DNA from: an uncultured Clostridia bacterium
GTDB lineage: Bacteria > Bacillota > Clostridia > Christensenellales > Borkfalkiaceae
Direction: 5' to 3'
Length of the DNA stretch: 64,000 bases
Assembly (NCBI GenBank): GCA_947624805.1
Contig: CANQLW010000001.1
Coordinates: forward strand, 37,073 to 101,072
Program-made: the position numbers and the translations under genes
Shown here: piece by piece, positions 37,061 through 56,834 of the stretch
Layout: each line of letters begins with the position of its first letter
Numbering within the stretch: position 1 is the stretch's first letter
The notes under the pieces: generated by a model
Told to the model about the DNA's origin: nothing
What the model saw: only the letters and a program-made list of their open reading frames with translations
Database searches by the model: none

Positions 37061-38083
37061 ATGATCAAACTCGGCATCGGAACGACGGGCAAATGCAACA
37101 TGAACTGCGAGCACTGCTACTCGCGGCGGTACGACGGCAAGACGCTGTCGCTCGAAGACATCCATGCGATCGCAGAGGCGATCGGGATCGACTCGGTGAA
37201 CTTCGGCACGGGGGAAAACATCCTCAACCCCGATTTCCCCGCAATCGTGGACGATCTCTATGAACGGGGGATCCCCCTCTCGCTGACGACGAACGGGTTC
37301 TCGATCATGAAGATGTCCGACGGGCAGATCCTCAAATTCCACGACATCGATTTCTCCCTCGAATTTCCCACGCGGGAGCTTCAGAACAGTTACCGCGGGC
37401 ACAATTCATGGGAGATGGTCACGGCGGGCATGGCGCGGTGCAAGACGCTCGGCGTCCCCTTCTCCGTCGCGACCGTCCTCATGAACGCCAACGCCCCCTA
37501 TCTCCCCGACTTCTACGGGCTGATCGGGCAGTACGGCTGTTTTCTGCGGATCAACGTCATCAAGTTCAATGAAAGGACACATTCCCCCGACGACGAACAG
37601 GCGCTCACCTATGAGACCTTCTGGGAGAGCATCCGAAAGATTCTGGAACGGTTTTCCCTCATCTCCTGCTCGGAGCCCATCCTCCGCGCCGCGCTCGGGC
37701 TCGGGGACGACTGCGGCATCCCCTGCGGAAGGGCCTCCATCCGTATCCAGCCCGACAGGAGCATCCTGCCCTGCGTCTATTGGGGGGATTCTTCGCTCAC
37801 GGTCGACGATCTCATACGGCAGGGAGAGGACGTCCTTTCGTCCCCCGAATTTGCCGCCGCCTCCCTGCTCCCCGAAGTCTGCCGCGGGTGTGCCTATGTA
37901 CTGCCCTGCGCGGGCGGCTGTGCGAGCCGCCGCAAACTCTCGAAGGCGGGACTCGCGGCGCCCGATCCCTACTGTCCCCTCGTGCGCGGGGAGCAATTCC
38001 CCCGCCTTTCCTACCGTCCGAACGGGGAGGGCGTCGATCTCATCCACTCGAAATATCTTTGCACGATCATACTCGGCATTTAA
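37061..38083 (+). CDS. Radical SAM enzyme with a C-terminal SPASM/twitch-like Cys cluster
   Basis: The CxxxCxxC motif is GKCNMNCEHCYS. The C-terminal cysteines are CGRASIRIQPDRSILPC...CRGCAYVLPCAGGCASRR...YCP. Confidence 0.8.
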   Translation: MIKLGIGTTGKCNMNCEHCYSRRYDGKTLSLEDIHAIAEAIGIDSVNFGTGENILNPDFPAIVDDLYERGIPLSLTTNGFSIMKMSDGQILKFHDIDFSLEFPTRELQNSYRGHNSWEMVTAGMARCKTLGVPFSVATVLMNANAPYLPDFYGLIGQYGCFLRINVIKFNERTHSPDDEQALTYETFWESIRKILERFSLISCSEPILRAALGLGDDCGIPCGRASIRIQPDRSILPCVYWGDSSLTVDDLIRQGEDVLSSPEFAAASLLPEVCRGCAYVLPCAGGCASRRKLSKAGLAAPDPYCPLVRGEQFPRLSYRPNGEGVDLIHSKYLCTIILGI

Positions 38084-46311: not shown

Positions 46312-48834
46312 TCAGGGCTCGGCGGAGACGAGATAGAGCGAGCCGAGCGTTCTGGAATAGGAGATATACCGCTCGTTGTAGGTCATATCGCCGTCAAAGA
46401 TGACCGCGGCGTCAAATTCAAGGCCCTTGCATTGCTCCACGGTATGGACATATCCCGCGAGCGCGTCGTTTTTTGCAAGCCGTTCTGCCGTCACCGCGTC
46501 CCGTCCGCTGATGATGATCGCCACCCTCGCGCCCTCCTCCTGAAAGGCGAGATACCGCCCGATCTCCCGCTCCTTCACGGACAGCACCTTCGCGCCGTCG
46601 ATCCCGAGCGGCGTCATCCTCTTTTGCAGTCTTTCATTGATGAACGCCGTCACTTCCTGTGTATTACGATAGTTCTCATTGAGTTCATAGCAGGAGAACG
46701 TTCCGATGCTCTCAAGGCGTGACCAGCTGTCCACGCCCCGCGAGGGGTCAACGCGCTGGTCGATATCCCCGAAGATATTGAATGCGGCCCTTCTGCCGCA
46801 GACGGCACGCAGGAGCCGATACTCGTTCGGGTCGAGATCCTGTCCCTCATCGATACAGATGAGTTGGCCCTCATACAAATTCCCGCTCCTCTTTTTGGCG
46901 CCGCCGAACAGGAAATTCATCAATGTCTCAGCATAGAGCTCACCGCGGGAACATCCCTTCCGTGCACGGTCCTCCCCATAGCGTACCCCGTAACGGGAAA
47001 GCGAGAGTTTGGGCCTTTCGGGAGCGCCGATGTTTTCGAAATGAAAGGTAAGAGGCCTCTGCGCCTCCCGACACTTTGCACAAAATCTCCTGCTGAGATA
47101 GGGAAGATCGGCGGGCTCGAGGCGGCCCTTGCTGCAACGGCTGCAAAAACTACCCTTGATCCACTCACTGCGGTTGGCAAAGTCCCGTCCGCCGTCCTGA
47201 TAGCGGTCGTTGAGCTCCTCGAACTCCCTTACGCGCGCCGCCCACTTTTCCCCTTCCTGGGCAATGCGTGCGCTCAGGGTCTCATAAAAGGCATCGGAGT
47301 AGTAATATCTGTCGGCGTCTGCATCCCCGTCCTGCTGTTCCGAGAGCCGTGCACGGAGTTCGCGCACTCTGTCATCGTCGACATAACGGGAGAGAACGTC
47401 GAGGTAGAATTCGGTGACTGTCCGCAGTCTGACCTGTTGCAGGCGCAGATCGTGGATAACGGGCGCAATGTGCTGTTTGAATTCCTCGCTCGGCACGATC
47501 ACGGTGACGGCGCTGAGGTCCAGCGCCCCGCGGAATGCCAAAAATTCAAGCCGCTGCAGGAGGATCATCGTCTTGCCGCAGCCCGCGCAGCCCTGTACGA
47601 TCAGGTTCTCCCCGCGGGGACGAGTGATGATCTGGGTCTGGTTTTCCTGTATGGTCGGGATGATGTCCGTGAGCCGCTTGTCATTCTTTTTCCGTTCGAG
47701 AATACGGGCGAGGAAGCGGTCATAGACGATCTCGTCCTGCCCGACTCCCCGAAGATAACTTTGAAAGACCTCGACCAGTTGTCCTTTTCTGATGTCAAAG
47801 CGGCGCTTGAAGAGGACGGTATATTCGATTCCCTCATAAGAAAAACCGGTGAGACGGTCATAGATATGTGCGGGCACGGGCGCATTGTGTGAATAGACGG
47901 TGAGCCGATCGTCGCTGCCCAGCATAAAGTAGTCCTGTCCGATGTAGAGATCCAGCTGCTCGCCCCCGCCGCTTTCCAATAGCATACGCCCGAAGTAGGG
48001 ATCGTCGAGACGGGCACGGAGGAACCCGAGCTTCTCGCGCTTGTTCATCGCCCGCTCCTTCCCTGCCTGAAAGACACGGAGATCGGCGAGGTCGCGGACA
48101 TCTTTGATATCTTCGTTGAATTGCGCCTCACGGTCCAAACGGCGGATCTGTTCCTTCATGCGCTCCCGCAGAAAGGCGAGATGCTCCGTTTCCTCCTGTT
48201 TGATCGCATTTTTATCGGCATCTGCCGCACGCAGACGGCGTACAGAGACAAAGGCACGGTGCAGGATCTCGCCGTGGACATCTGTGATCGTGCCGTGGGC
48301 CGGATCGAAATCTTCTTCGGTGAACGCGCCGTCCTCATCGTCGTCTGATGCCTCGTACTCCTCTTCCGCGGTCTCTGCCGAGAGACGGGAGATCCTTTCC
48401 GCTGCCTCTTCATCCCCCAACTCCGCCGCGAGACGGAGAAAACCGAGCGCTTTTTCATCGTCCCGTTCCGCCTGACCGCCCTCCGAATAGGCACGAAAGA
48501 GCCATTGGACGGAGGGAAGATAGGCGAGCGCCGCCGCTTTGCTGTGGCAGTAAATCGCCTTTTGGAGATTCTTCCCGATCCCGAGCCCGCGTTCGAAGAG
48601 GAGGCCGAGACGGTACATACAAACGGCATGACCGCACTGCGCGCCGAAACGGTAAAGATATGCCGCGTCGAGATAATTTTGCTGCCGTTCCCGCTCCTCC
48701 GCGGCGGCACAGATCTTTTCGGCGGAGGCATAGAAGCCGTCGAGATTGAAGCCGCATTCGGGGCAATATTTCGCCGATTTTTCGAATACGTTTCCACATT
48801 GCGGACAGAATATTTCCCTCTTCTTTTGCTCCAT
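46312..48834 (-). CDS. HelD/UvrD-like SF1 helicase with an N-terminal zinc ribbon and Sel1-like repeats
   Basis: CPQCGNVFEKSAKYCPECG is the zinc ribbon. YRLGLLFERGLGIGKNLQKAIYCHSKAA is Sel1-like. Walker A is QGCAGCGKTM, with CIDEGQDL and CKGLEFDAAVIFD. Confidence 0.8.
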   Translation of the reverse strand: MEQKKREIFCPQCGNVFEKSAKYCPECGFNLDGFYASAEKICAAAEERERQQNYLDAAYLYRFGAQCGHAVCMYRLGLLFERGLGIGKNLQKAIYCHSKAAALAYLPSVQWLFRAYSEGGQAERDDEKALGFLRLAAELGDEEAAERISRLSAETAEEEYEASDDDEDGAFTEEDFDPAHGTITDVHGEILHRAFVSVRRLRAADADKNAIKQEETEHLAFLRERMKEQIRRLDREAQFNEDIKDVRDLADLRVFQAGKERAMNKREKLGFLRARLDDPYFGRMLLESGGGEQLDLYIGQDYFMLGSDDRLTVYSHNAPVPAHIYDRLTGFSYEGIEYTVLFKRRFDIRKGQLVEVFQSYLRGVGQDEIVYDRFLARILERKKNDKRLTDIIPTIQENQTQIITRPRGENLIVQGCAGCGKTMILLQRLEFLAFRGALDLSAVTVIVPSEEFKQHIAPVIHDLRLQQVRLRTVTEFYLDVLSRYVDDDRVRELRARLSEQQDGDADADRYYYSDAFYETLSARIAQEGEKWAARVREFEELNDRYQDGGRDFANRSEWIKGSFCSRCSKGRLEPADLPYLSRRFCAKCREAQRPLTFHFENIGAPERPKLSLSRYGVRYGEDRARKGCSRGELYAETLMNFLFGGAKKRSGNLYEGQLICIDEGQDLDPNEYRLLRAVCGRRAAFNIFGDIDQRVDPSRGVDSWSRLESIGTFSCYELNENYRNTQEVTAFINERLQKRMTPLGIDGAKVLSVKEREIGRYLAFQEEGARVAIIISGRDAVTAERLAKNDALAGYVHTVEQCKGLEFDAAVIFDGDMTYNERYISYSRTLGSLYLVSAEP

Positions 48835-48929: not shown

Positions 48930-49400
48930 CATCCGTCACCCCGCCCCGCGTGCGTTCTGCGTCATCCTGAGACGGTGAAAAAGAACGAAGTCCGCCCCGC
49001 GCGCGTTCTATTACACAAAGCGCGGCACGAGCGGCCTTGCCGCGAAGTAAGGATCCCCTCAAACGGAGTCCGCCCCTCGCCCACTCTCCTTCTCTCTGCG
49101 TCATCCTGAGACAGTGAGCCGTACGCAGTCCGAACGGCAATTTTCGAAGGATCCCCTCAAACGGAGTCCGCCCTTGCCCACCCCTTGAGGGGTGGGTGTC
49201 ACGGCTTCGCCGTGACGGAAGGGGTGTTCTCTTGGCGCCCCTCATAGGGGAGCTGGCGCCGAAGGCGGCTGAGGGGTTTTGAAACCCTATCCCCCGCTAC
49301 GCGGGTACTTCCCCTACGAGGGGAAGCAAGTGCCAATTTACTACGCGGGTACTTCCCCTACGAGGGGCAGCGAGGGCCTCTCGCCCGCCTCATTTCCTTG
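48930..49400. repeat. Cluster of mosaic GC-rich hairpin repeats (family copy R4)
   Basis: gtcatcctgag occurs at 48961 and 49100. Hairpins include cccacccc ttga ggggtggg and gtcacggc ttc gccgtgac. ctacgcgggtacttcccctacgagggg occurs twice, about 43 bp apart. Confidence 0.7.
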
Positions 49401-49448
49401 CTCTCTCATATTTTCCGAAAAATTTTTTGAGAAAAATTACAGAGGGGG

Positions 49449-49477
49449 TTGCAATTTGTCGAAAAATTGAGTATAAT
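49449..49477 (+). promoter_or_regulatory. Candidate sigma-A promoter upstream of radC
   Basis: ttgcaa (49449-49454), a 17-nt spacer, then tataat (49472-49477). It would give a leader of about 260 nt. Confidence 0.45.
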
Positions 49478-49527
49478 AAGCAAAACTAAAACATCGGGTC
49501 CGTCACAAAGTTTATTCATATATATCA

Positions 49528-49731
49528 GATCAACAAAGTAAACAAAGTAAACAAAATAAACAAAGAGACAACCCAAAAACCAACCCAAACAGCAATTCAT
49601 CAAACAACCCACGAAATAATCTAAACGACAACCCAAACGATAACCCAAGCCACAACCCAAAAGATAAAAAACAAGACAACTCCAACAGACAACCCAAGCA
49701 ACAACCCACAGACACATCAATCAATAAACCA
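49528..49731 (+). repeat. A+C-rich, G/T-depleted degenerate 12-nt-periodic repeat array
   Basis: AACCCA starts at 49570, 49582, 49606, 49630, 49642, 49654, 49691 and 49703, with a variant aactcca at 49678. Most spacings are 12 or 24 nt. My hand count for 49531-49730 is 15 G and 15 T in 200 nt. Confidence 0.8.
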
Positions 49732-49743
49732 AGGGGAAAGAGT

Positions 49744-50589
49744 ATGGCAAACAGATCGAGGAAAAAGAGTAATCAGGATGAACCGACAGACCTAATCCCG
49801 AACGGAACGGAGGAAGAATCCGTACCCAAAAAGACGAAAGCAGATAAACCGGGGAAAGGAGCCATGCACGACGGTCATCGGGAGAGAATGTATAACCGTC
49901 TGTCCAAAGACGATACATTAGAAGATCATGAACTCCTCGAACTCCTACTCTTCTTCGTCATCCCCAGAAAGAATACCAACGAAACAGCCCATCTGCTCCT
50001 CAATAGCTGTAAGAGTCTTTCAGGTGTCTTCCATACCAATCCCACAGTACTTCAGTCGGTAGAAGGAGTAGGACCGCAGACGTCGTACTTTCTCAGAGGG
50101 ATCGGAGAACTCTATGACAGAATGGGAAAGGAAGGGCTTCGTCCGAAGGGAGGAGATCCGTTCTCTTTCAGTGAGTTCAGGAAACACGTACAGGAAAAGT
50201 ATAAGCCTTTCAATTATGAAGTTCTTGAGTTTTACAGTGTAGACTCCAAAGACAGGATCACATTCTCTTCTATGATATCATCGGGAGAGAATGATCATGT
50301 GGCGGTGGCGCCTGAGGATATTACCAAATTTCTTGCGGAGAACAAACCGAGCGGGTTTGCGGTGGCACATAATCATCCGAATGCTTCTTGTCTTCCGTCT
50401 GAGAGGGACAATGACTTTACGAAGAGGATTCATCTGATCTGTGCGTTGAACAATGTGAGATTTCTCGATCATGTGATCGTCGGGAATGATGCTGTGTACA
50501 GTTACAGACTGACGGGACAGTTAGGACGGATCGAGAAGCAGTGCGACATCGATCGGCTCATTCACTCGGACCTTCCCCCTGAGTGGTAA
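49744..50589 (+). CDS. radC: RadC-family JAB/MPN domain protein
   Basis: The JAB motif is AVAHNHPNASCLPSERDNDFTKRI. The N-terminal HhH-like region is GHRERMYNRL...ELLELLLFFVIPRKNTNETAHLLL...GVGPQT. A Lys-rich 40-aa N-terminal extension means the start could instead be the internal Met at aa 41. Confidence 0.8.
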   Translation: MANRSRKKSNQDEPTDLIPNGTEEESVPKKTKADKPGKGAMHDGHRERMYNRLSKDDTLEDHELLELLLFFVIPRKNTNETAHLLLNSCKSLSGVFHTNPTVLQSVEGVGPQTSYFLRGIGELYDRMGKEGLRPKGGDPFSFSEFRKHVQEKYKPFNYEVLEFYSVDSKDRITFSSMISSGENDHVAVAPEDITKFLAENKPSGFAVAHNHPNASCLPSERDNDFTKRIHLICALNNVRFLDHVIVGNDAVYSYRLTGQLGRIEKQCDIDRLIHSDLPPEW

Positions 50590-50678
50590 GGGAAAGAAGA
50601 GATTGGTTGAGATAGAGGAAAAGTCAGATAACCTGATAACCTGATACCTAAATGAGTAAATACCCTGATACCCCAAAA

Positions 50679-50706
50679 GGAGAAAGCAGCCGCTTTCTCC
50701 TTTTTT
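50679..50706 (+). terminator. Rho-independent terminator after radC
   Basis: ggagaaagc (50679-50687) pairs with gctttctcc (50692-50700), followed by tttttt. Confidence 0.65.
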
Positions 50707-50719
50707 GATTAAAGGGGGG

Positions 50720-51250
50720 GAAGGATGATGAGAGAACACCCCTTCCGTCACTCGCGTTGCTCGTGCCACCCTTCTCGCGCAGGTAGAGTCCTGCGCTTGG
50801 TCATCGTTCGCGCCTCTGATGCGCTCACTCATGTCGCAACGCGCGAAAGGTCCACTGGACCTTTCGCAGAACGCGTTGCTCCACCTCAAGGGGTGGGCAA
50901 GAAATGGGGTGGGCATTATCCCCTCCTCAGTCGCGCTTCGCTCGACAGCTGTCTCGGGCGGGTAGAGCCCCGCCCTACTTCGCGGCAAAGCCGCTCGTGC
51001 CGCGCTTAGTGCAATAGAACGCGCGCGGGGCGGTCACCGCTCGCGCCTCTGATGCGCTACTTCGTCGCTGACGCTCCTCGTGCCGCCCTTCGACGACAAA
51101 AGAACGTGCGGGCGGGGCGCTCATGTCGCAACGCGCGAAAGGTCCACTGGACCTTTCGCAGAACGCGTTGCTCCACCCTCGGGGGAGCTTTGTCGGACTT
51201 CGTTTGAGGGGATCCTTCGGCTACGTCTCAGTCACGCTATGTGTGGCTGA
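50720..51250. repeat. Cluster of mosaic GC-rich repeats (family copy R5); includes direct-repeat copy A at 51054-51219
   Basis: It contains the 11-bp-stem hairpin gcgaaaggtcc act ggacctttcgc twice (about 50836 and 51135). 51054-51219 is repeated at 55397-55562. Confidence 0.75.
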
Positions 51251-51545
51251 GATGGGGAATAAGGGGGGTAAAATTCTCACCTCTACCCATTTCAAGAGGG
51301 TCCGATCGACCTTATATTAAGACGAGCACGCGCCACGCTGTCACAGCCCTAACTTTTTCAGTAAAATCAAAAAATTATAATTACAATCAGCGCAGGGAAA
51401 TATTGGGGGGCAAATTGGAAAACAACTCCATCTTTTGCGCGAAATTTTAGGCTTAAGCAATATTAGCAAACACAAAAGTTATTCCTGTATAATCAAGGAG
51501 CAATCTAATATTTGAAGAATATTAGAAAAATGTGTCGAAAAATTA

Positions 51546-51575
51546 TTGACAAATATTTTTTCGCTGTGGTATATT
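51546..51575 (+). promoter_or_regulatory. Candidate extended -10 promoter of the AT-rich cassette
   Basis: ttgaca (51546-51551), an 18-nt spacer, then tgg+tatatt (51567-51575). RBS aggaga lies 8 nt before the ATG at 51606. The palindrome ctaatatt tgaag aatattag (51505-51525) lies just upstream. Confidence 0.5.
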
Positions 51576-51605
51576 GTTGTTGAAAAAATTTAGGAGATAT
51601 TAAAA

Positions 51606-51830
51606 ATGGATAACGAATCAAATCGTGAGAAATTTGTAAGGTTGGCGGAAGCAAGAACTCAAAAAATCATTGATACAATAAAGCTATTGGGTAATTGCTC
51701 TAATCGGTATGTGTATGAATATACCGAAAAAGACGTGGAAAAGATTTTTTCTACGATTGAAGCAGAACTCAAAACTGCAAAGGCAAAATTCACCGGCGGC
51801 GGTAGCAAAGAAACGAGATTTAAGCTCTAA
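51606..51830 (+). CDS. Small hypothetical helical protein (first gene of the cassette)
   Basis: 74 aa with a good RBS. Its AT-rich codon usage matches the two downstream genes. No motif recognised. Confidence 0.55.
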   Translation: MDNESNREKFVRLAEARTQKIIDTIKLLGNCSNRYVYEYTEKDVEKIFSTIEAELKTAKAKFTGGGSKETRFKL

Positions 51831-51844
51831 TTGCGAGGGTGCAA

Positions 51845-54259
51845 ATGAAAAACTTGTTTTATAAAATTTATAATTGCGATTCTTATGCCGCGCTCTATGA
51901 ATTAGTTCATCATGACCCGTTTTTGAGCGATCCGGCGAATTGGCGACCCTATGGTGACAATAAGAATAATTGCGGCACGTTTGAAAATCAGCAAGCAAAA
52001 CCGGAAGCGGCTCTTGTCGAGAAACTTACCAATTCGATAGACGCTATTTTAACGAAAGAGTGCCTTATTCGAGGAATCGACCCGAAATCCAAATCTCCCG
52101 AAGTTCCGCAAACGATGACGGAAGCAATCGAACGGTATTTCAATGTTATTAAGGGCAAATGGGAGAACGCCGTTGAGTCGCGCCGCAAGGAAATCGCGTC
52201 GAGATTACAAGTAATTTTGACGGGAGATAAACAGACGCCCAATATTGCAATCTATGATGACGGGGAGGGGCAAACTCCAAGCGCGTTCCCGAATACATTT
52301 TTATCGTTACATCGCGGGAACAAAATAGATATTCCCTTTGTGCAGGGGAAATTTAATATGGGATCTACCGGTGCCGTGCTGTTTTGCGGCGGAGATGAAA
52401 AATATCAGCTTATCGTTTCAAGACGCGCCAAAAAGCTATGTTCGGCAGACGAATACAAATATGGCTTCACGCTTGTGCGCAAGCACCCGCTTTCTCCCGA
52501 AGAAGAAATTACTATGAAAAGTACATGGTATGAATATTTTGTAATCAACGATGCCGTTCCCTCTTTTGAAGCCGAAGCGTTGGAATTGGGATTGGATAAA
52601 AAGAAACCCTTTATTGACGGTACGGTCATCAAGTTATATTCCTATGAGTTATCGCGTGGGTGTCAATCGGACGCTACTTTTGATTTGTGGCGCGAATTGA
52701 ATACCCTGCTTTACGATTCAAGTTTACCCGTCTTGATTTGCGAACAGCGAGATTTCAAAGGACACTCGAAAGAGAAAGTCATGTTGGGAAATAAAACCCG
52801 TGTTTCCATTGACGATAGAGATAAAAAGTATAAATCGTGGTCGTATGCAATTCAAGACCTTGCCACTTTTGGCGCAGATATTCCGATAGAAGTAACTGTT
52901 TTCAAACCGGAAGTAAAGAATCCGGAGTTCATCAGACAACGTTCCGTGATTTTTACCCTAAATGGTCAAACGCAGGGCTTTGAGGGGAAAACCTTTATCA
53001 GCACGGATTTGGGATTTAGACAGTTGCGCGAATATATGCTTATTTGCGTCGATTGCACCAAAATCAAAACGAGTGTCCGCAACGAAATTTTCATGTCCTC
53101 CCGCGATAGAATGCGTGAGGGGAAATACTATACGATTCTAAAAGAACAGCTTATCGCATTGCTGAAAAGCGATGATAACTTGAAACAGCTGAATCAAGAG
53201 TATAAGGGGAAAGAACTTGCGGAATCCAAAGATGATAAAGAATTGATACAGCACCTTTTTGAAAATTTGAAAAACAATGATAACATCAAGCGATTGCTCA
53301 CAAATATAAAGGGCTTGTATTCTTTCTCGTCAACCAAACGGGCAGAACAACCCCATGAAAGCGGAACTTCCAAAAAGAAAGCAGAAACGCCCGAGCTGAA
53401 ACGATTCCCCTCCTATTTCAAAGTCACAAACTTAAAAGAAAAAGACGGAAAATTATATAAAGCTATCGCATTGGATAGTCACGGAACAATTACGTTTGAA
53501 ACAAATGCGGAAGATGAATTTTTGACCCGCAATGTTGAGAAAGGCGAATTGGAAATCTCCATACTGAATTATAGCAATCACGGGCAAGGCGGCGAGGGAG
53601 ATCGACTTCCCACTTCTCCCGACGACAAACTCATTATTAGTCGTTCCGGTCCGAATGACGGAGAGATTCGACTTTCTATAACGCCAACAGAAAAAGCCGT
53701 CGCGGGGGATATGTTTGAAATCTCCGCAAAAATGATTTCTGTTGCAGGAGAATTGGAAGTTGTCGTTTTTGTCGGAATCGACGATAAAAAGGAAAAGAAA
53801 TCAGAACCGGCAAAAGTAGAAGAAACGCCTAATTTGAACCTGCCAAAGATGATTCGAGTGTTCAAAGATAAAAAAGATGATGATTCGCCGGTATGGGCAG
53901 ACTGCAATCCCCCCATGACGGCAGACGACGTTATACAACTCGTGATAGACGATGAAAATATCAGCGAAATCCTTATCAATATGGATTCAAACTTACTTAA
54001 AAAACAGGTAAATAAGCGCGGCGTTTCCGTCGAAATGGTAGGAAAGAAATATGTCACAAGTATTTATTCTCACGCTCTGATTTTATATTCTACTCTCTAC
54101 GGATATTATAACGGTCAGAACGAGGCAGTAAACTCTGACTTTGATAAGCATGAATTAGATAGTATTCGAGAAAATCTGGAAAAAGCCATTCCTGCGATAT
54201 TCAAATATTATGGCGGTTTCCTCATGGATATTGGGGATATGGATTTAACCGATGAATAA
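51845..54259 (+). CDS. GHKL (Bergerat-fold, HATPase_c-like) ATPase, large multidomain protein
   Basis: The N-box is ALVEKLTNSIDAIL (ExxxNxxDA), the G1 box is IAIYDDGEGQ (DxGxG) and the G2 box is QGKFNMGSTGAV (GxxGxG). The ATG at 51845 follows gaggg; the track start is a GTG at 51839. The ~550 C-terminal residues have unknown function. Confidence 0.7.
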   Translation: MKNLFYKIYNCDSYAALYELVHHDPFLSDPANWRPYGDNKNNCGTFENQQAKPEAALVEKLTNSIDAILTKECLIRGIDPKSKSPEVPQTMTEAIERYFNVIKGKWENAVESRRKEIASRLQVILTGDKQTPNIAIYDDGEGQTPSAFPNTFLSLHRGNKIDIPFVQGKFNMGSTGAVLFCGGDEKYQLIVSRRAKKLCSADEYKYGFTLVRKHPLSPEEEITMKSTWYEYFVINDAVPSFEAEALELGLDKKKPFIDGTVIKLYSYELSRGCQSDATFDLWRELNTLLYDSSLPVLICEQRDFKGHSKEKVMLGNKTRVSIDDRDKKYKSWSYAIQDLATFGADIPIEVTVFKPEVKNPEFIRQRSVIFTLNGQTQGFEGKTFISTDLGFRQLREYMLICVDCTKIKTSVRNEIFMSSRDRMREGKYYTILKEQLIALLKSDDNLKQLNQEYKGKELAESKDDKELIQHLFENLKNNDNIKRLLTNIKGLYSFSSTKRAEQPHESGTSKKKAETPELKRFPSYFKVTNLKEKDGKLYKAIALDSHGTITFETNAEDEFLTRNVEKGELEISILNYSNHGQGGEGDRLPTSPDDKLIISRSGPNDGEIRLSITPTEKAVAGDMFEISAKMISVAGELEVVVFVGIDDKKEKKSEPAKVEETPNLNLPKMIRVFKDKKDDDSPVWADCNPPMTADDVIQLVIDDENISEILINMDSNLLKKQVNKRGVSVEMVGKKYVTSIYSHALILYSTLYGYYNGQNEAVNSDFDKHELDSIRENLEKAIPAIFKYYGGFLMDIGDMDLTDE

Positions 54260-54278
54260 GGAGTGAATTTTTAATATT

Positions 54279-55148
54279 ATGAGTAACGGTCTTGAATTGA
54301 GTTGTGATAAAAAGTTCTTTTATGCGACTGTCAAAATTGAGAACCATACTATGAATGGGACGGTAAAACATTCAACAGGATTTTTTTATAATTTTGAAAC
54401 AAGTAATGGCAAAACTGTGAGGGCTATTTTAACTTGTAAACACTCGATTGAGGACTTTGCCAAAATCGATTTAATTACTTGTTTAGATAATGGGCGCGCT
54501 GAACCGATAGATAATGTTCGTTTTACAATGACATATGCCGCTGATAGCCCTTTGATTGTAAAACACCACGATAAAACAATCGATCTTGCCGCGCTTATTT
54601 TTTCTTATGACGATAAAATTTTTTTAAGCGGAAATCAGCAACCTTTTTATCTATCATTAGATAATTCTTTAATCCCAACCGAAGAACAACTTAATCAGTT
54701 ATCATATATAGAAGAAGTCCTTATGGTAGGCTATCCACAAAATATTTGGGACACATATAACAATAAGCCAATTATTAGAAAAGGAATTACTTCATCTCCT
54801 ATTCAACTTGATTTTGGTGGGAAAAAACAATTCTTATTGGATATTGCCTCTTTTCATGGCTCGAGTGGATCGCCTGTTTTTATATATAAACCTTCTCCTC
54901 ATCTTGAAAGTAATGCATTGGTGTTTAATCAACAAGTATATCTTTTGGGAATGTTTTTCGGTGGATGGGAAGAAGTAACAAATGGCAGTACTCCGGTAAC
55001 AGCTTATGATAAAGAACAGGACAAGAAATATGATTTAGAGCTGGTTTTGCCTAATCATTTAGGTATCGTTTTGAAATCCGCAGTTTTTATGGAATTAAAA
55101 GATCTTATTGAAAAGTGTATTGAGGAAGAGGTTGTAAAAAGAAAATAA
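54279..55148 (+). CDS. Trypsin-like (S1/chymotrypsin-fold) serine protease, no signal peptide
   Basis: The triad context is ILTCKHSI (His), TIDLAALIF (Asp) and FHGSSGSPVF (Ser). No hydrophobic N-terminal leader is present, so it is predicted to be cytoplasmic. Confidence 0.8.
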   Translation: MSNGLELSCDKKFFYATVKIENHTMNGTVKHSTGFFYNFETSNGKTVRAILTCKHSIEDFAKIDLITCLDNGRAEPIDNVRFTMTYAADSPLIVKHHDKTIDLAALIFSYDDKIFLSGNQQPFYLSLDNSLIPTEEQLNQLSYIEEVLMVGYPQNIWDTYNNKPIIRKGITSSPIQLDFGGKKQFLLDIASFHGSSGSPVFIYKPSPHLESNALVFNQQVYLLGMFFGGWEEVTNGSTPVTAYDKEQDKKYDLELVLPNHLGIVLKSAVFMELKDLIEKCIEEEVVKRK

Positions 55149-55259
55149 AAACAGCCCTTTCAATTACCACTTGTTCAGGTTAAGCCCCCCGCCCGCTCGC
55201 GACATTGACTTGACGGAGTAAGGCAAAGAGGAAATCATTGGAAGAAATAACTGTCGATC

Positions 55260-56100
55260 TGCGCTATGGAAAGATGCCCGTCAAGGGCGTCTTTTCTTGT
55301 GTGGCAAAACCCATCCTGAAAAGAATTTCACCCCCCTCGGTCTCACTACGTTCGACAGCTGTCTCGGGCGGGGCGGTCAACGTTCGCGCGGGATAATGCG
55401 CTACTTCGTTGCTTCGCTCCTCGTGCCGCCCTTCGACGACAAAAGAACGTGCGGGCGGGGCACTCATGTCGCAACGCGCGAAAGGTTCACCGGACCTTTC
55501 GCAGAACGCGTTGCTCCACCCTCGGGGGAGCTTTGTCGGACTGCGTTTGAGGGGATCCTTCGAAACTAACAATTCGGACTTCGTAATGCTCACTGTCTCA
55601 GGATGACGCGGGGGGAGGGGCGCCGAGGGTCGGACTGCGTTTGAGGGGACATGGTGCATTGTCTTACCCCCCATCCGTCTTTACTTCGCAAATCCACCCT
55701 CCCCCCATAGGGGGTAGGGCTTCAACCCCCACCCCTACCCCGTCCCCTTAAAAAGGGGGCGGGCGAGAAATACGGACTTCGTTTGAGGGGATCCTTCGCT
55801 GCGCTCAGGATGACGCAGGGGAGGAGGGCAGGCAACCCCCACCCCTACCCCGCCCCCTTAAAAAGGGGGCGGGCGAGAAATACGGACTTCGTTTGAGGGG
55901 ATCCTTCGCTGCGCTCAGGATGACGCAGGGGAGGAGGGCAGGCAACCCCCACCCCTACCCCGCCCCCTTCAAAGGGGCCGGGCAAGAAATATGGACTACA
56001 TTTGAAGGGATCCTTCACCCCCTACGGGGGTTCAGGATGACGCTGGGGGGAGGTGGGCAAGAATAAGGGCGGGATGACAGTAAAGCGCACGAGATGACGC
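55260..56100. repeat. Cluster of mosaic GC-rich repeats (family copy R6); includes direct-repeat copy B (55397-55562) and a 110-bp tandem array (55723-56052)
   Basis: 55731-55840 and 55841-55950 differ at one position by my alignment. A third unit is degenerate. ctcaggatgac occurs at 55597, 55804 and 55914. Confidence 0.8.
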
Positions 56101-56142: not shown

Positions 56143-56242
56143 GTGTGGTATAATCCTCTCAAACAGAGTGTGGTATAATCCTGTCAAACAGAGTATGATA
56201 TAATCCTCTCAAACGGGTGTGATATGATCTTCTCAAAACGGA
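56143..56242 (+). repeat. Four tandem 25-bp units, each carrying a TGnTATAAT-like element, immediately upstream of a CDS
   Basis: The units are gtgtggtataatcctctcaaacaga (56143-56167), gtgtggtataatcctgtcaaacaga (56168-56192), gtatgatataatcctctcaaacggg (56193-56217) and tgtgatatgatcttctcaaaacgga (56218-56242). The ATG is at 56250. Confidence 0.8.
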
Positions 56243-56249
56243 GGCAAGC

Positions 56250-56834
56250 ATGAAGAGAAAACAAGAAAAAGAGGAGCTGATCCGATACATCGAACGGATC
56301 CGCGATGATGAGGGCCATGCTGTCGTGGACGTCGATCTCGGGGAGGATGTTACGCGGTACGATCCCCTCAGTCTCAAGGGGCAAAAGGATCTCAATGGCG
56401 AGATCTACGACTACATCGAGGCGCAAACGAACATTATCCCCGCCGAGGTCCCCCTCCGCATCCGTTTCCACGGCGAATTCACCGAGGCGGAGCAGGAAGA
56501 GATCAAAACCGCCATCCACCGTCACTACGTAATGAAGTCCTTCGATCTCTCATGGGATCTCATGGCGAATCTCAGGAAGATGCTCATCCTCGCGATCTTC
56601 GGCGCCGCCGTGCTCGCCGTATATCTGTACTTTGCGATCACGGGGGAACACGTCTTCATGACGGAGATCCTCTCGATCGTCGGCTCCTTCTCTCTGTGGG
56701 AAGCGGCGGACGCGCTCCTTCTCGAACGCCCCCATCTGCGCCGTGAGATGCGTAACAACGACCAAAGTCTCTCCGAACGCATCGAATTTGTCACAGCGGA
56801 ACCGAAAACGGAGCCGAAAACCGAACAGCTTTGA
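56250..56834 (+). CDS. Hypothetical 2-TM membrane protein
   Basis: 194 aa. An acidic N-terminal domain is followed by two hydrophobic helices (MLILAIFGAAVLAVYLYFAI, ILSIVGSFSLWEAADALLL). RBS aacggagg lies upstream. Confidence 0.55.
   Translation: MKRKQEKEELIRYIERIRDDEGHAVVDVDLGEDVTRYDPLSLKGQKDLNGEIYDYIEAQTNIIPAEVPLRIRFHGEFTEAEQEEIKTAIHRHYVMKSFDLSWDLMANLRKMLILAIFGAAVLAVYLYFAITGEHVFMTEILSIVGSFSLWEAADALLLERPHLRREMRNNDQSLSERIEFVTAEPKTEPKTEQL

Follow-up and report, generated by a model that had tools for sequence, protein, structure and literature searches.

A small-protein–GHKL ATPase gene pair and a PDC-S45-type serine protease gene in an AT-rich islet of a Borkfalkiaceae genome

The contig CANQLW010000001.1 of an uncultured Clostridia bacterium (Borkfalkiaceae; assembly GCA_947624805.1) contains, in the 64,000-nt window analysed here (contig positions 37,073 to 101,072; all coordinates below are those of the window), an AT-rich islet carrying three genes. 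These encode, in order, a 74-residue protein, a GHKL ATPase of about 800 residues and a trypsin-fold (S1) serine protease (Table 1). All three open reading frames (ORFs) lie on the plus strand and are closely packed, with 8–14 nt between the small gene and the GHKL gene, depending on the start assigned to the latter, and 19 nt between the GHKL gene and the protease gene. About 30 nt upstream of the small gene is a TTGACA-18-TATATT element, the top-scoring promoter-like site of the region. Between the GHKL and protease genes, a sequence scan found neither a terminator-like hairpin nor a strong promoter; co-transcription of these two is therefore likely, and the three genes are probably expressed as one transcript. 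The G+C content of the islet is far below that of its flanks, and the segment looks horizontally acquired. The AT-rich cassette with its abrupt shift in composition, and the co-oriented, tightly spaced genes with a promoter-like element of their own, had been noticed in an earlier sequence-only reading of this stretch, and both observations hold. That reading also took the trio for a single new defence module in which the ATPase is the sensor and the protease the effector. Comparison with relatives corrects this unit of analysis: judged by gene order, the conserved module joins the small protein to the GHKL ATPase; the protease stands apart from it and belongs to an already catalogued family.

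The GHKL protein displays the key features of a Bergerat-fold ATPase. In the public gene calls for window-identical contigs the product has 804 residues, corresponding to a start at ATG 51845, and for this reason an exact look-up of the 806-residue form returned no match. Motif I reads E61KLTNSIDA69, in which an alignment of 38 diverse relatives shows N65 and D68 to be invariant and E61 to be nearly so, and motif II reads D140DGEG144, in which D140, G142 and G144 are invariant in the same alignment. Both motifs agree with the earlier proposal that all three Bergerat boxes are present, and it is the third, GxxGxG, that does not stand as proposed. The sole literal copy of that motif, G582QGGEG, falls outside the ATPase domain, in a loop modelled with low confidence, and probably does not represent the ATP-lid motif; the expected position of the G2 box is occupied by G170KFNMG175, a GxxNxG variant whose G170, N173 and G175 are invariant across the 38 relatives. 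The Pfam model HATPase_c_3 scores the window protein at 14.1 bits, below its cut-off of 25, and matches 12 of the 38 relatives (best E 1.6e-7).

Structure prediction points in the same direction. An AlphaFold2 model built from a 33-sequence alignment has a mean predicted local distance difference test score (pLDDT) of 74.9, and Foldseek aligns it with the ATPase-plus-transducer region of GyrB and ParE over ~420 columns at E 2.5e-9 to 4e-7. HtpG and GRP94 are also matched, the full range of the matches being E 2.5e-9 to 9e-4. Taken together, the model and the searches give a domain order of N-terminal helices, Bergerat domain, transducer, helical linker, two immunoglobulin (Ig)-like domains and a C-terminal helical bundle. 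Residues ~527–715 resemble Ig-like beta-sandwiches, and the matches of this region to viral structures are just as generic. The GHKL fold put forward from the motifs is borne out by these structural matches and by the recognition of HATPase_c_3 in relatives, and the protein is, by motif conservation and predicted fold, a true GHKL ATPase. Searches of the Protein Data Bank (PDB) with its sequence and with a profile found no related chain, PADLOC has no match for the protein or for any of the 38 relatives, NCBIfam offers nothing relevant for the protein or the 38, and PHROGs nothing for the window protein.

Upstream of the ATPase gene, the small protein is predicted to form a helical hairpin (helices at residues 6–32 and 41–63, pLDDT 87) that ends in a conserved RFKL tail. 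No family match and no structural match in the PDB were found for it.

The last gene of the operon is, on motif and profile evidence, an intracellular S1 serine protease. Its product passes the threshold of Pfam Trypsin_2 (PF13365; 28.7 bits against a cut-off of 27.6), and the triad H55, D102 and S196, the last being the serine of GSSGSP, is invariant across 34 family members. The N-terminus is non-hydrophobic, by inspection only; both observations agree with the complete triad and missing signal peptide described earlier. The copy of this protein held at NCBI (P0271) has 265 residues, 24 fewer than the 289-residue ORF, the missing part being 54279–54350; because family members conserve this N-terminal stretch of 24 residues, the longer start is preferable and the 265-residue call is probably truncated. 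PADLOC, recommended in the sequence-only reading as a check, was informative for the protease and silent on the ATPase: the protease matches PDC-S45 at E 4.7e-72 (240 bits; residues 7–282 on positions 14–288 of a 293-position profile). It also matches phrog_7688 (E 1.4e-37). The family is therefore one already catalogued, PDC-S45 being a single-gene computational candidate for which no experimental validation was found. A much weaker match joins the protease to the Lamassu LmuA model (E 1e-5, residues 15–204 on profile positions 9–160). It covers only the N-terminal part of that model; no LmuB or LmuC was seen, and the two neighbouring operon proteins have no PADLOC match.

Three independent protease relatives, with 49–54% identity to the window protein, are stand-alone genes with unrelated neighbours. 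One adjoins genes for a HEPN protein and a serine recombinase, another a restriction-modification cluster that includes Mrr, and the third AAA_15/AAA_21 and KAP-type NTPase genes. No GHKL gene was found in the loci of these three closest independent relatives.

The same separation is seen from the side of the ATPase. About 100 loci of GHKL relatives were compared: 2 loci came from reference genomes, 80 from metagenomes and 10 from viral contigs, and several more were reached by exact look-up. The protease is absent from these loci by single-sequence search and by profile search alike, and stands beside a GHKL gene only in five contigs that are 100% identical to the window. Co-occurrence of the three genes across genomes, which the sequence-only reading had proposed as a check, was accordingly not seen outside window-identical contigs, and, as far as gene neighbourhoods indicate, the trio is not a conserved module. 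Elsewhere, the position just 3′ of the GHKL gene is filled by unrelated genes. Those identified encode a GmrSD enzyme, three STAND/NB-ARC NTPases, a nucleoside deoxyribosyltransferase-like protein and an inositol monophosphatase; that is, self-sufficient defence genes or unrelated enzymes. This pattern resembles the stacking of genes in a defence island and, on gene content, is not that of a dedicated effector slot.

What does recur is the pair formed by the first two genes. A small gene lies 0–28 nt upstream of the GHKL gene at 26 of the 90 loci with room for one, including loci whose GHKL proteins are only 27–28% identical to the window's; most of the distant GHKL clades are without it. Among six loci (the window and five relatives), the small proteins are 69–81% identical to that of the window, and GHKL proteins from a broader range of relatives show 46–89% identity to the window's GHKL protein. 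No fusion of the two proteins of the Rosetta-stone kind occurs among 435 proteins collected. By this conservation of gene order, the small protein plus GHKL gene is the recurrent unit. The small protein had been proposed as partner, substrate or inhibitor within the trio, and it is a partnership with the ATPase that the comparison upholds, not one with the protease.

The pair is also, on comparison of its loci, mobile, since copies with identical protein products reside in two unrelated chromosomal contexts (L003:7031-10815 and L006:7029-10815) inside a shared 3.8-kb block. The two versions of this block are 98.8% identical and have 48-nt imperfect terminal inverted repeats, with a second inverted pair further in. 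In L003 the block is flanked by 152-nt direct repeats that contain a tRNA 3′ fragment, and tRNA genes flank the element. No recombinase was found inside the 3.8-kb block at either locus.

Beyond the window's close relatives, the GHKL protein belongs to a large, unannotated family. At E <= 0.001 the family comprises 1,770 clusters at 50% identity, 562 of which have E <= 1e-30, and a word-indexed search retrieved 2,349 proteins at E <= 0.001. Every named member is called "hypothetical protein". As to a phage origin, no GHKL relative was found in 50,697 phage records, and there are ten weak to moderate matches in IMG/VR contigs. Further family members have a type IV restriction enzyme, GmrSD or STAND NTPases as neighbours.

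The most consistent association of the family is with DNA phosphorothioation genes. A neighbour-joining tree labelled with gene neighbourhoods contains a large clade in which almost all loci with enough flanking sequence carry SspC and SspD, and often SspB. These neighbours were confirmed by PADLOC (SspC at E = 0, SspD at 2.6e-83), and annotated plasmids agree. In all, 41 GHKL loci adjoin SspB, SspC or SspD genes (among them L030, L032, L033, L039, L041, L046, L059, L062, L074, L084, L095, L113 and L114), in at least five architectures. The minimal form, as at L030 and L033, consists of sspBCD and the GHKL gene only. In another the GHKL gene is convergent on a kinase-DUF262-sspD-sspC operon; a third has the GHKL gene followed by genes for a 176-residue protein and a DndB-like protein; and a fourth has sspCD, a histidine-kinase-like GHKL paralogue, a 679-residue protein, the GHKL gene and iscS. 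The Hymenobacter plasmid locus L113 (NZ_CP110137.1, 65.8–75.4 kb) groups GHKL, SIR2, DUF262, PAPS reductase, SspC and DUF4007 genes, and integrase genes bracket the set. The Ssp-linked GHKL proteins are mutually 28–100% identical (median 53%), which indicates that the linkage is not that of a single recent island. Neither this linkage nor a role of the GHKL family in defence was found described in the searchable literature.

Two arrangements within the Ssp-linked loci are described here in their own right. At L050, L074, L079, L085, L086, L088 and L114, a conserved gene pair lies between sspD and the GHKL gene, encoding a protein of ~790 residues with HATPase_c_3 and HATPase_c domains (annotated as a sensor histidine kinase) and a protein of ~680 residues with no family match; at these loci, a cysteine desulfurase gene is often convergent on the GHKL gene. 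At L059, L067, L070, L075, L081, L083, L084 and L087, the sspC-sspD operon encodes a Ser/Thr kinase (PD-T4-6/Stk2-like) and a DUF262 (GmrSD_N) protein and is convergent on the GHKL gene, the place of the kinase being taken by the SIR2 protein in L113.

The ATPase gene of the window is of the solo kind, lacking ssp neighbours. A tblastn search with SspB, SspC and SspD found none in the 64 kb, and gene calls at the loci of the window's own clade include no ssp or PAPS-reductase genes.

Comparisons with known systems help to delimit what the two parts of the operon could be. The window protease is like PDC-S45 from end to end, with the difference that PDC-S45 relatives stand alone in defence islands, whereas the window gene is probably co-transcribed behind an unrelated two-gene module. 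The ATPase shares motifs I and II and the ATPase-plus-transducer arrangement with GyrB, ParE, MutL, Hsp90 and MORC, and carries a G2-box variant. Unlike these, it has no Toprim domain, MutL C-terminal endonuclease, MORC coiled-coil or CW domain, or Hsp90 middle and C-terminal domains, and possesses instead the Ig-like pair and the helical C-terminus. Set against the MORC and paraMORC ATPases of restriction-modification contexts, which combine GHKL with an S5-fold transducer and a MORC-specific signature, the protein has a transducer domain and its family lies in neighbourhoods of a similar kind; no MORC structure is found among the top 50 PDB matches.

IetAS, in which an AAA+ ATPase is paired with a subtilisin-like S8 protease (PMC13069673), resembles the operon in that an ATPase gene adjoins a serine protease gene in a defence context. 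It can be set aside: the ATPase here is GHKL and not AAA+, the protease S1 and not S8, PADLOC gives no IetA or IetS match, and the pairing is not conserved. The earlier statement that no named system pairs a GHKL ATPase with an S1 protease is borne out. CapK and CapS, an anti-sigma-factor-type kinase and a STAS-domain protein encoded as a pair upstream of immune operons (PMC13373217), are likewise ruled out as the identity of the small-plus-GHKL pair, which consists of a GyrB-like ATPase of ~800 residues and a 74-residue helical hairpin.

Among phosphorothioation partners, SspE, DndI, SspFGH and DndFGH offer a positional likeness, for the large GHKL clade holds their place next to sspBCD, and all are NTPases thought to act on DNA. 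The domain content of these known partners is different (PMC8092258, PMC11662687). SspE and DndI are excluded for the GHKL family, which has no DUF262 or HNH domain, as is SspFGH, since the Walker A and FtsK-like features of SspF and SspH (PMC8092258) are missing. The PADLOC models for Ssp, Dnd and Pbe find no match in the 38 family members. GHKL-containing Shedu (VcSduA; PMC12137116) and SLFN-pAgo-GHKL (bioRxiv 10.64898/2026.05.29.728809) also place a GHKL ATPase in an anti-phage protein. There, the GHKL domain is a regulatory module fused to a DUF4263 nuclease or to an Argonaute-Schlafen core, respectively (PMC12137116; bioRxiv 10.64898/2026.05.29.728809), whereas the family described here has no recognisable effector domain. 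The GHKL pair is in no named system; GHKL ATPases as components of conflict systems are a known theme, with which the pair agrees.

On balance, we favour the view that the islet is a horizontally acquired AT-rich operon in which two separable candidate defence modules are stacked. This view is supported by the absence of the protease from other GHKL loci, the solitary state of protease relatives, the PDC-S45 match and the divergent composition of the genes (G+C 0.333 for the protease, 0.415 for the GHKL gene). A defence role as such, which the sequence-only reading had suggested, is plausible for both parts, whose relatives lie among restriction, STAND, HEPN and phosphorothioation genes; a new system built of GHKL ATPase plus S1 protease is the portion of the suggestion that falls away. 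A single promoter would drive both modules. The first would comprise the small helical-hairpin protein and the ~805-residue ATPase, which may dimerise on ATP binding, as do GyrB, MutL, MORC and Hsp90, and could work on DNA, its most likely target, as a nucleotide-gated clamp or sensor, with the small protein as a regulatory or adaptor partner. The second would be the PDC-S45 protease, which probably acts independently of the pair as an infection-triggered proteolytic effector of the abortive-infection type. From such comparisons we infer the clamping of DNA, the part played by the small protein, the trigger of the protease and the anti-phage activity; for the clamp or sensor, the grounds are the GyrB/MutL-type core, the conserved catalytic residues and the association of the family with phosphorothioation and restriction genes. 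The adjacency to SspBCD suggests that the family recognises DNA, or acts on it, as part of a self/non-self distinction.

It is conceivable, if distinctly tentative, that the reading may be carried further. The pair would then be an autonomous anti-phage system of unnamed type, and its relatives the missing partner of orphan SspBCD, acting as a nuclease-less, ATP-gated clamp able to tell modified DNA from unmodified DNA, or foreign DNA from the cell's own; the PDC-S45 protease would perhaps have been recruited in this lineage. For about 84% of sspBCD clusters, no restriction partner is known (PMC8092258). Should the family turn out to act as a sensor or effector linked to phosphorothioation, some of these orphan clusters would be accounted for, and a nuclease-less GHKL clamp would join the known repertoire of bacterial immunity. 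The family, with no specific Pfam model and no NCBIfam, PADLOC or PDB match, merits follow-up, above all for its SspBCD linkage.

Several observations weigh against the view of two stacked defence modules. The 19-nt gap without an internal terminator or strong promoter leaves room for a lineage-specific coupling of GHKL ATPase and protease, and the only independent contig of an 89%-identical GHKL relative stops at the GHKL stop codon. No nuclease, toxin or other effector domain was recognised in the GHKL protein. At L007, a GHKL gene 78% identical to that of the window is intact and has its own promoter, with no small gene beside it. Moreover, the loci of the window's own clade are for the most part surrounded by housekeeping genes and not situated in recognisable defence islands. 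A rival reading is an integrated three-gene system: infection would be sensed by the GHKL protein, which would then switch on the protease, its dedicated effector, and the small protein would be partner, substrate or inhibitor. The single operon with one strong promoter, the confinement of all three genes to one AT-rich islet bounded by direct repeats, and the variable gene within ~20 nt 3′ of GHKL in many relatives, readable as a swappable effector slot, are all in keeping with such a system. Yet the protease accompanies GHKL only in window-identical contigs, its relatives are solo and catalogued as single-gene PDC-S45, the identifiable slot genes (GmrSD, STAND NTPases) are self-sufficient, and the G+C content of the protease gene departs from that of the other two; we consider the integrated system unlikely.

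The mobility of the pair might instead point to a toxin–antitoxin or addiction module serving to stabilise a mobile element; in that case the small product would neutralise a toxic ATPase, and no phage would be sensed. The tight coupling of a small upstream gene to a large downstream one would suit this, as would the carriage of the pair in the 3.8-kb block with its terminal inverted repeats in two contexts, and the presence of the pair or its family on plasmids and beside recombinases and rolling-circle replication genes. We nevertheless regard it as rather improbable: the L007 gene persists intact without the small gene, and most family members are without one, which means that toxicity is not an obligate property of the ATPase. 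In addition, of the two proteins it is the small one that shows the higher conservation, an unusual pattern for an antitoxin, and profile and structure searches found no toxin-type domain. A purely accessory function in DNA modification or metabolism (for example phosphorothioation or DNA repair), in which the family has no immune effector role and the window copy is an orphan remnant, has in its favour the constant SspBCD neighbour, down to minimal sspBCD-plus-GHKL loci, a fold like that of the DNA enzymes GyrB and MutL, and the radC gene next to the operon in the window. Many clades, including the window's, nonetheless have no ssp genes nearby, the catalytic residues are retained in solo forms, the known SspABCD modification needs no GHKL-type protein (PMC8092258), and the loci shift position between strains. 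Such a function seems very improbable, and the two-module view remains the one we prefer.

Table 1. Coordinates of the operon, its encoded domains and adjoining features in the 64,000-nt window
Feature	Position	Strand	Details
AT-rich islet carrying the operon	51221..55160	.	G+C 0.389, against 0.58–0.62 in the flanks
Promoter-like site	51546..51575	+	TTGACA, 18-nt spacer, TG-extended TATATT; 11/12 matches
Small partner protein gene	51606..51830	+	74 aa; predicted helical hairpin
GHKL ATPase gene	51839..54259	+	806 aa with the GTG start; more probably 804 aa, beginning at ATG 51845
Bergerat ATP-binding domain	52001..52648	+	~aa 55–270; motif I 52019-52045, motif II 52256-52270
G2-box variant GKFNMGSTG	52346-52372	+	
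GyrB/MutL-type transducer domain	52649..53113	+	~aa 271–425; conserved FMxSRDR motif, R422 invariant
Two Ig-like beta-sandwich domains	53417..53983	+	~aa 527–715
C-terminal helical bundle	53990..54229	+	~aa 718–797; no structural match found
S1 (trypsin-fold) serine protease gene	54279..55148	+	289 aa; PDC-S45
Protease triad codons	His55 54441-54443; Asp102 54582-54584; Ser196 54864-54866	+	
Left direct repeat	51072..51219	+	148 nt; hairpin-rich, G+C-rich, REP-like
Right direct repeat	55415..55562	+	97% identical to left repeat
RadC-like JAB protein gene	49744..50589	+	JAB domain, E 4e-22; context, outside operon

The surroundings of the islet are rich in repeats. The bracketing direct repeats, described earlier as ~166 bp long, are present and can be delimited as 148 nt at 97% identity, or ~199 nt at 92% when extended. 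They are part of a local cluster of related repeats (49000–56100) that also brackets radC, whose proximity to the cassette is likewise confirmed and whose product has a JAB domain. Searches in and around the cassette found no tRNA, and Rfam matches are at chance level only. For a comparison with an empty site, searches returned only contigs identical to the window.

The radC gene is itself a cassette of low G+C content (0.436), the second in the region, and lies between members of the same G+C-rich, hairpin-rich repeat family (49000–49400 and 50700–51220), inverted on the upstream side of the gene. The region as a whole looks like an array of two cassettes with repeat mosaics between them. Just 5′ of radC, at 49566–49714, is an A/C-rich array with a 12-nt period, ~12 copies and roughly 64–69% matches. 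Immediately upstream of the repeat/radC region, on the minus strand (46312–48834), a gene of host-like G+C content encodes an 840-residue protein in which a zinc ribbon and Sel1 repeat are combined with a UvrD/AAA_19 helicase region. On the other side of the operon, 55723–56016 holds 2.7 tandem copies (95% matches) of a 110-nt G+C-rich unit built of the motifs of the cassette-flanking repeats. Further on, at 56143–56237, a 25-nt unit (GTGTGGTATAATCCTCTCAAACAGA) occurs in ~4 tandem copies, each with a TATAAT-like hexamer, directly 5′ of a 194-residue ORF (56250–56834) that has no Pfam match.

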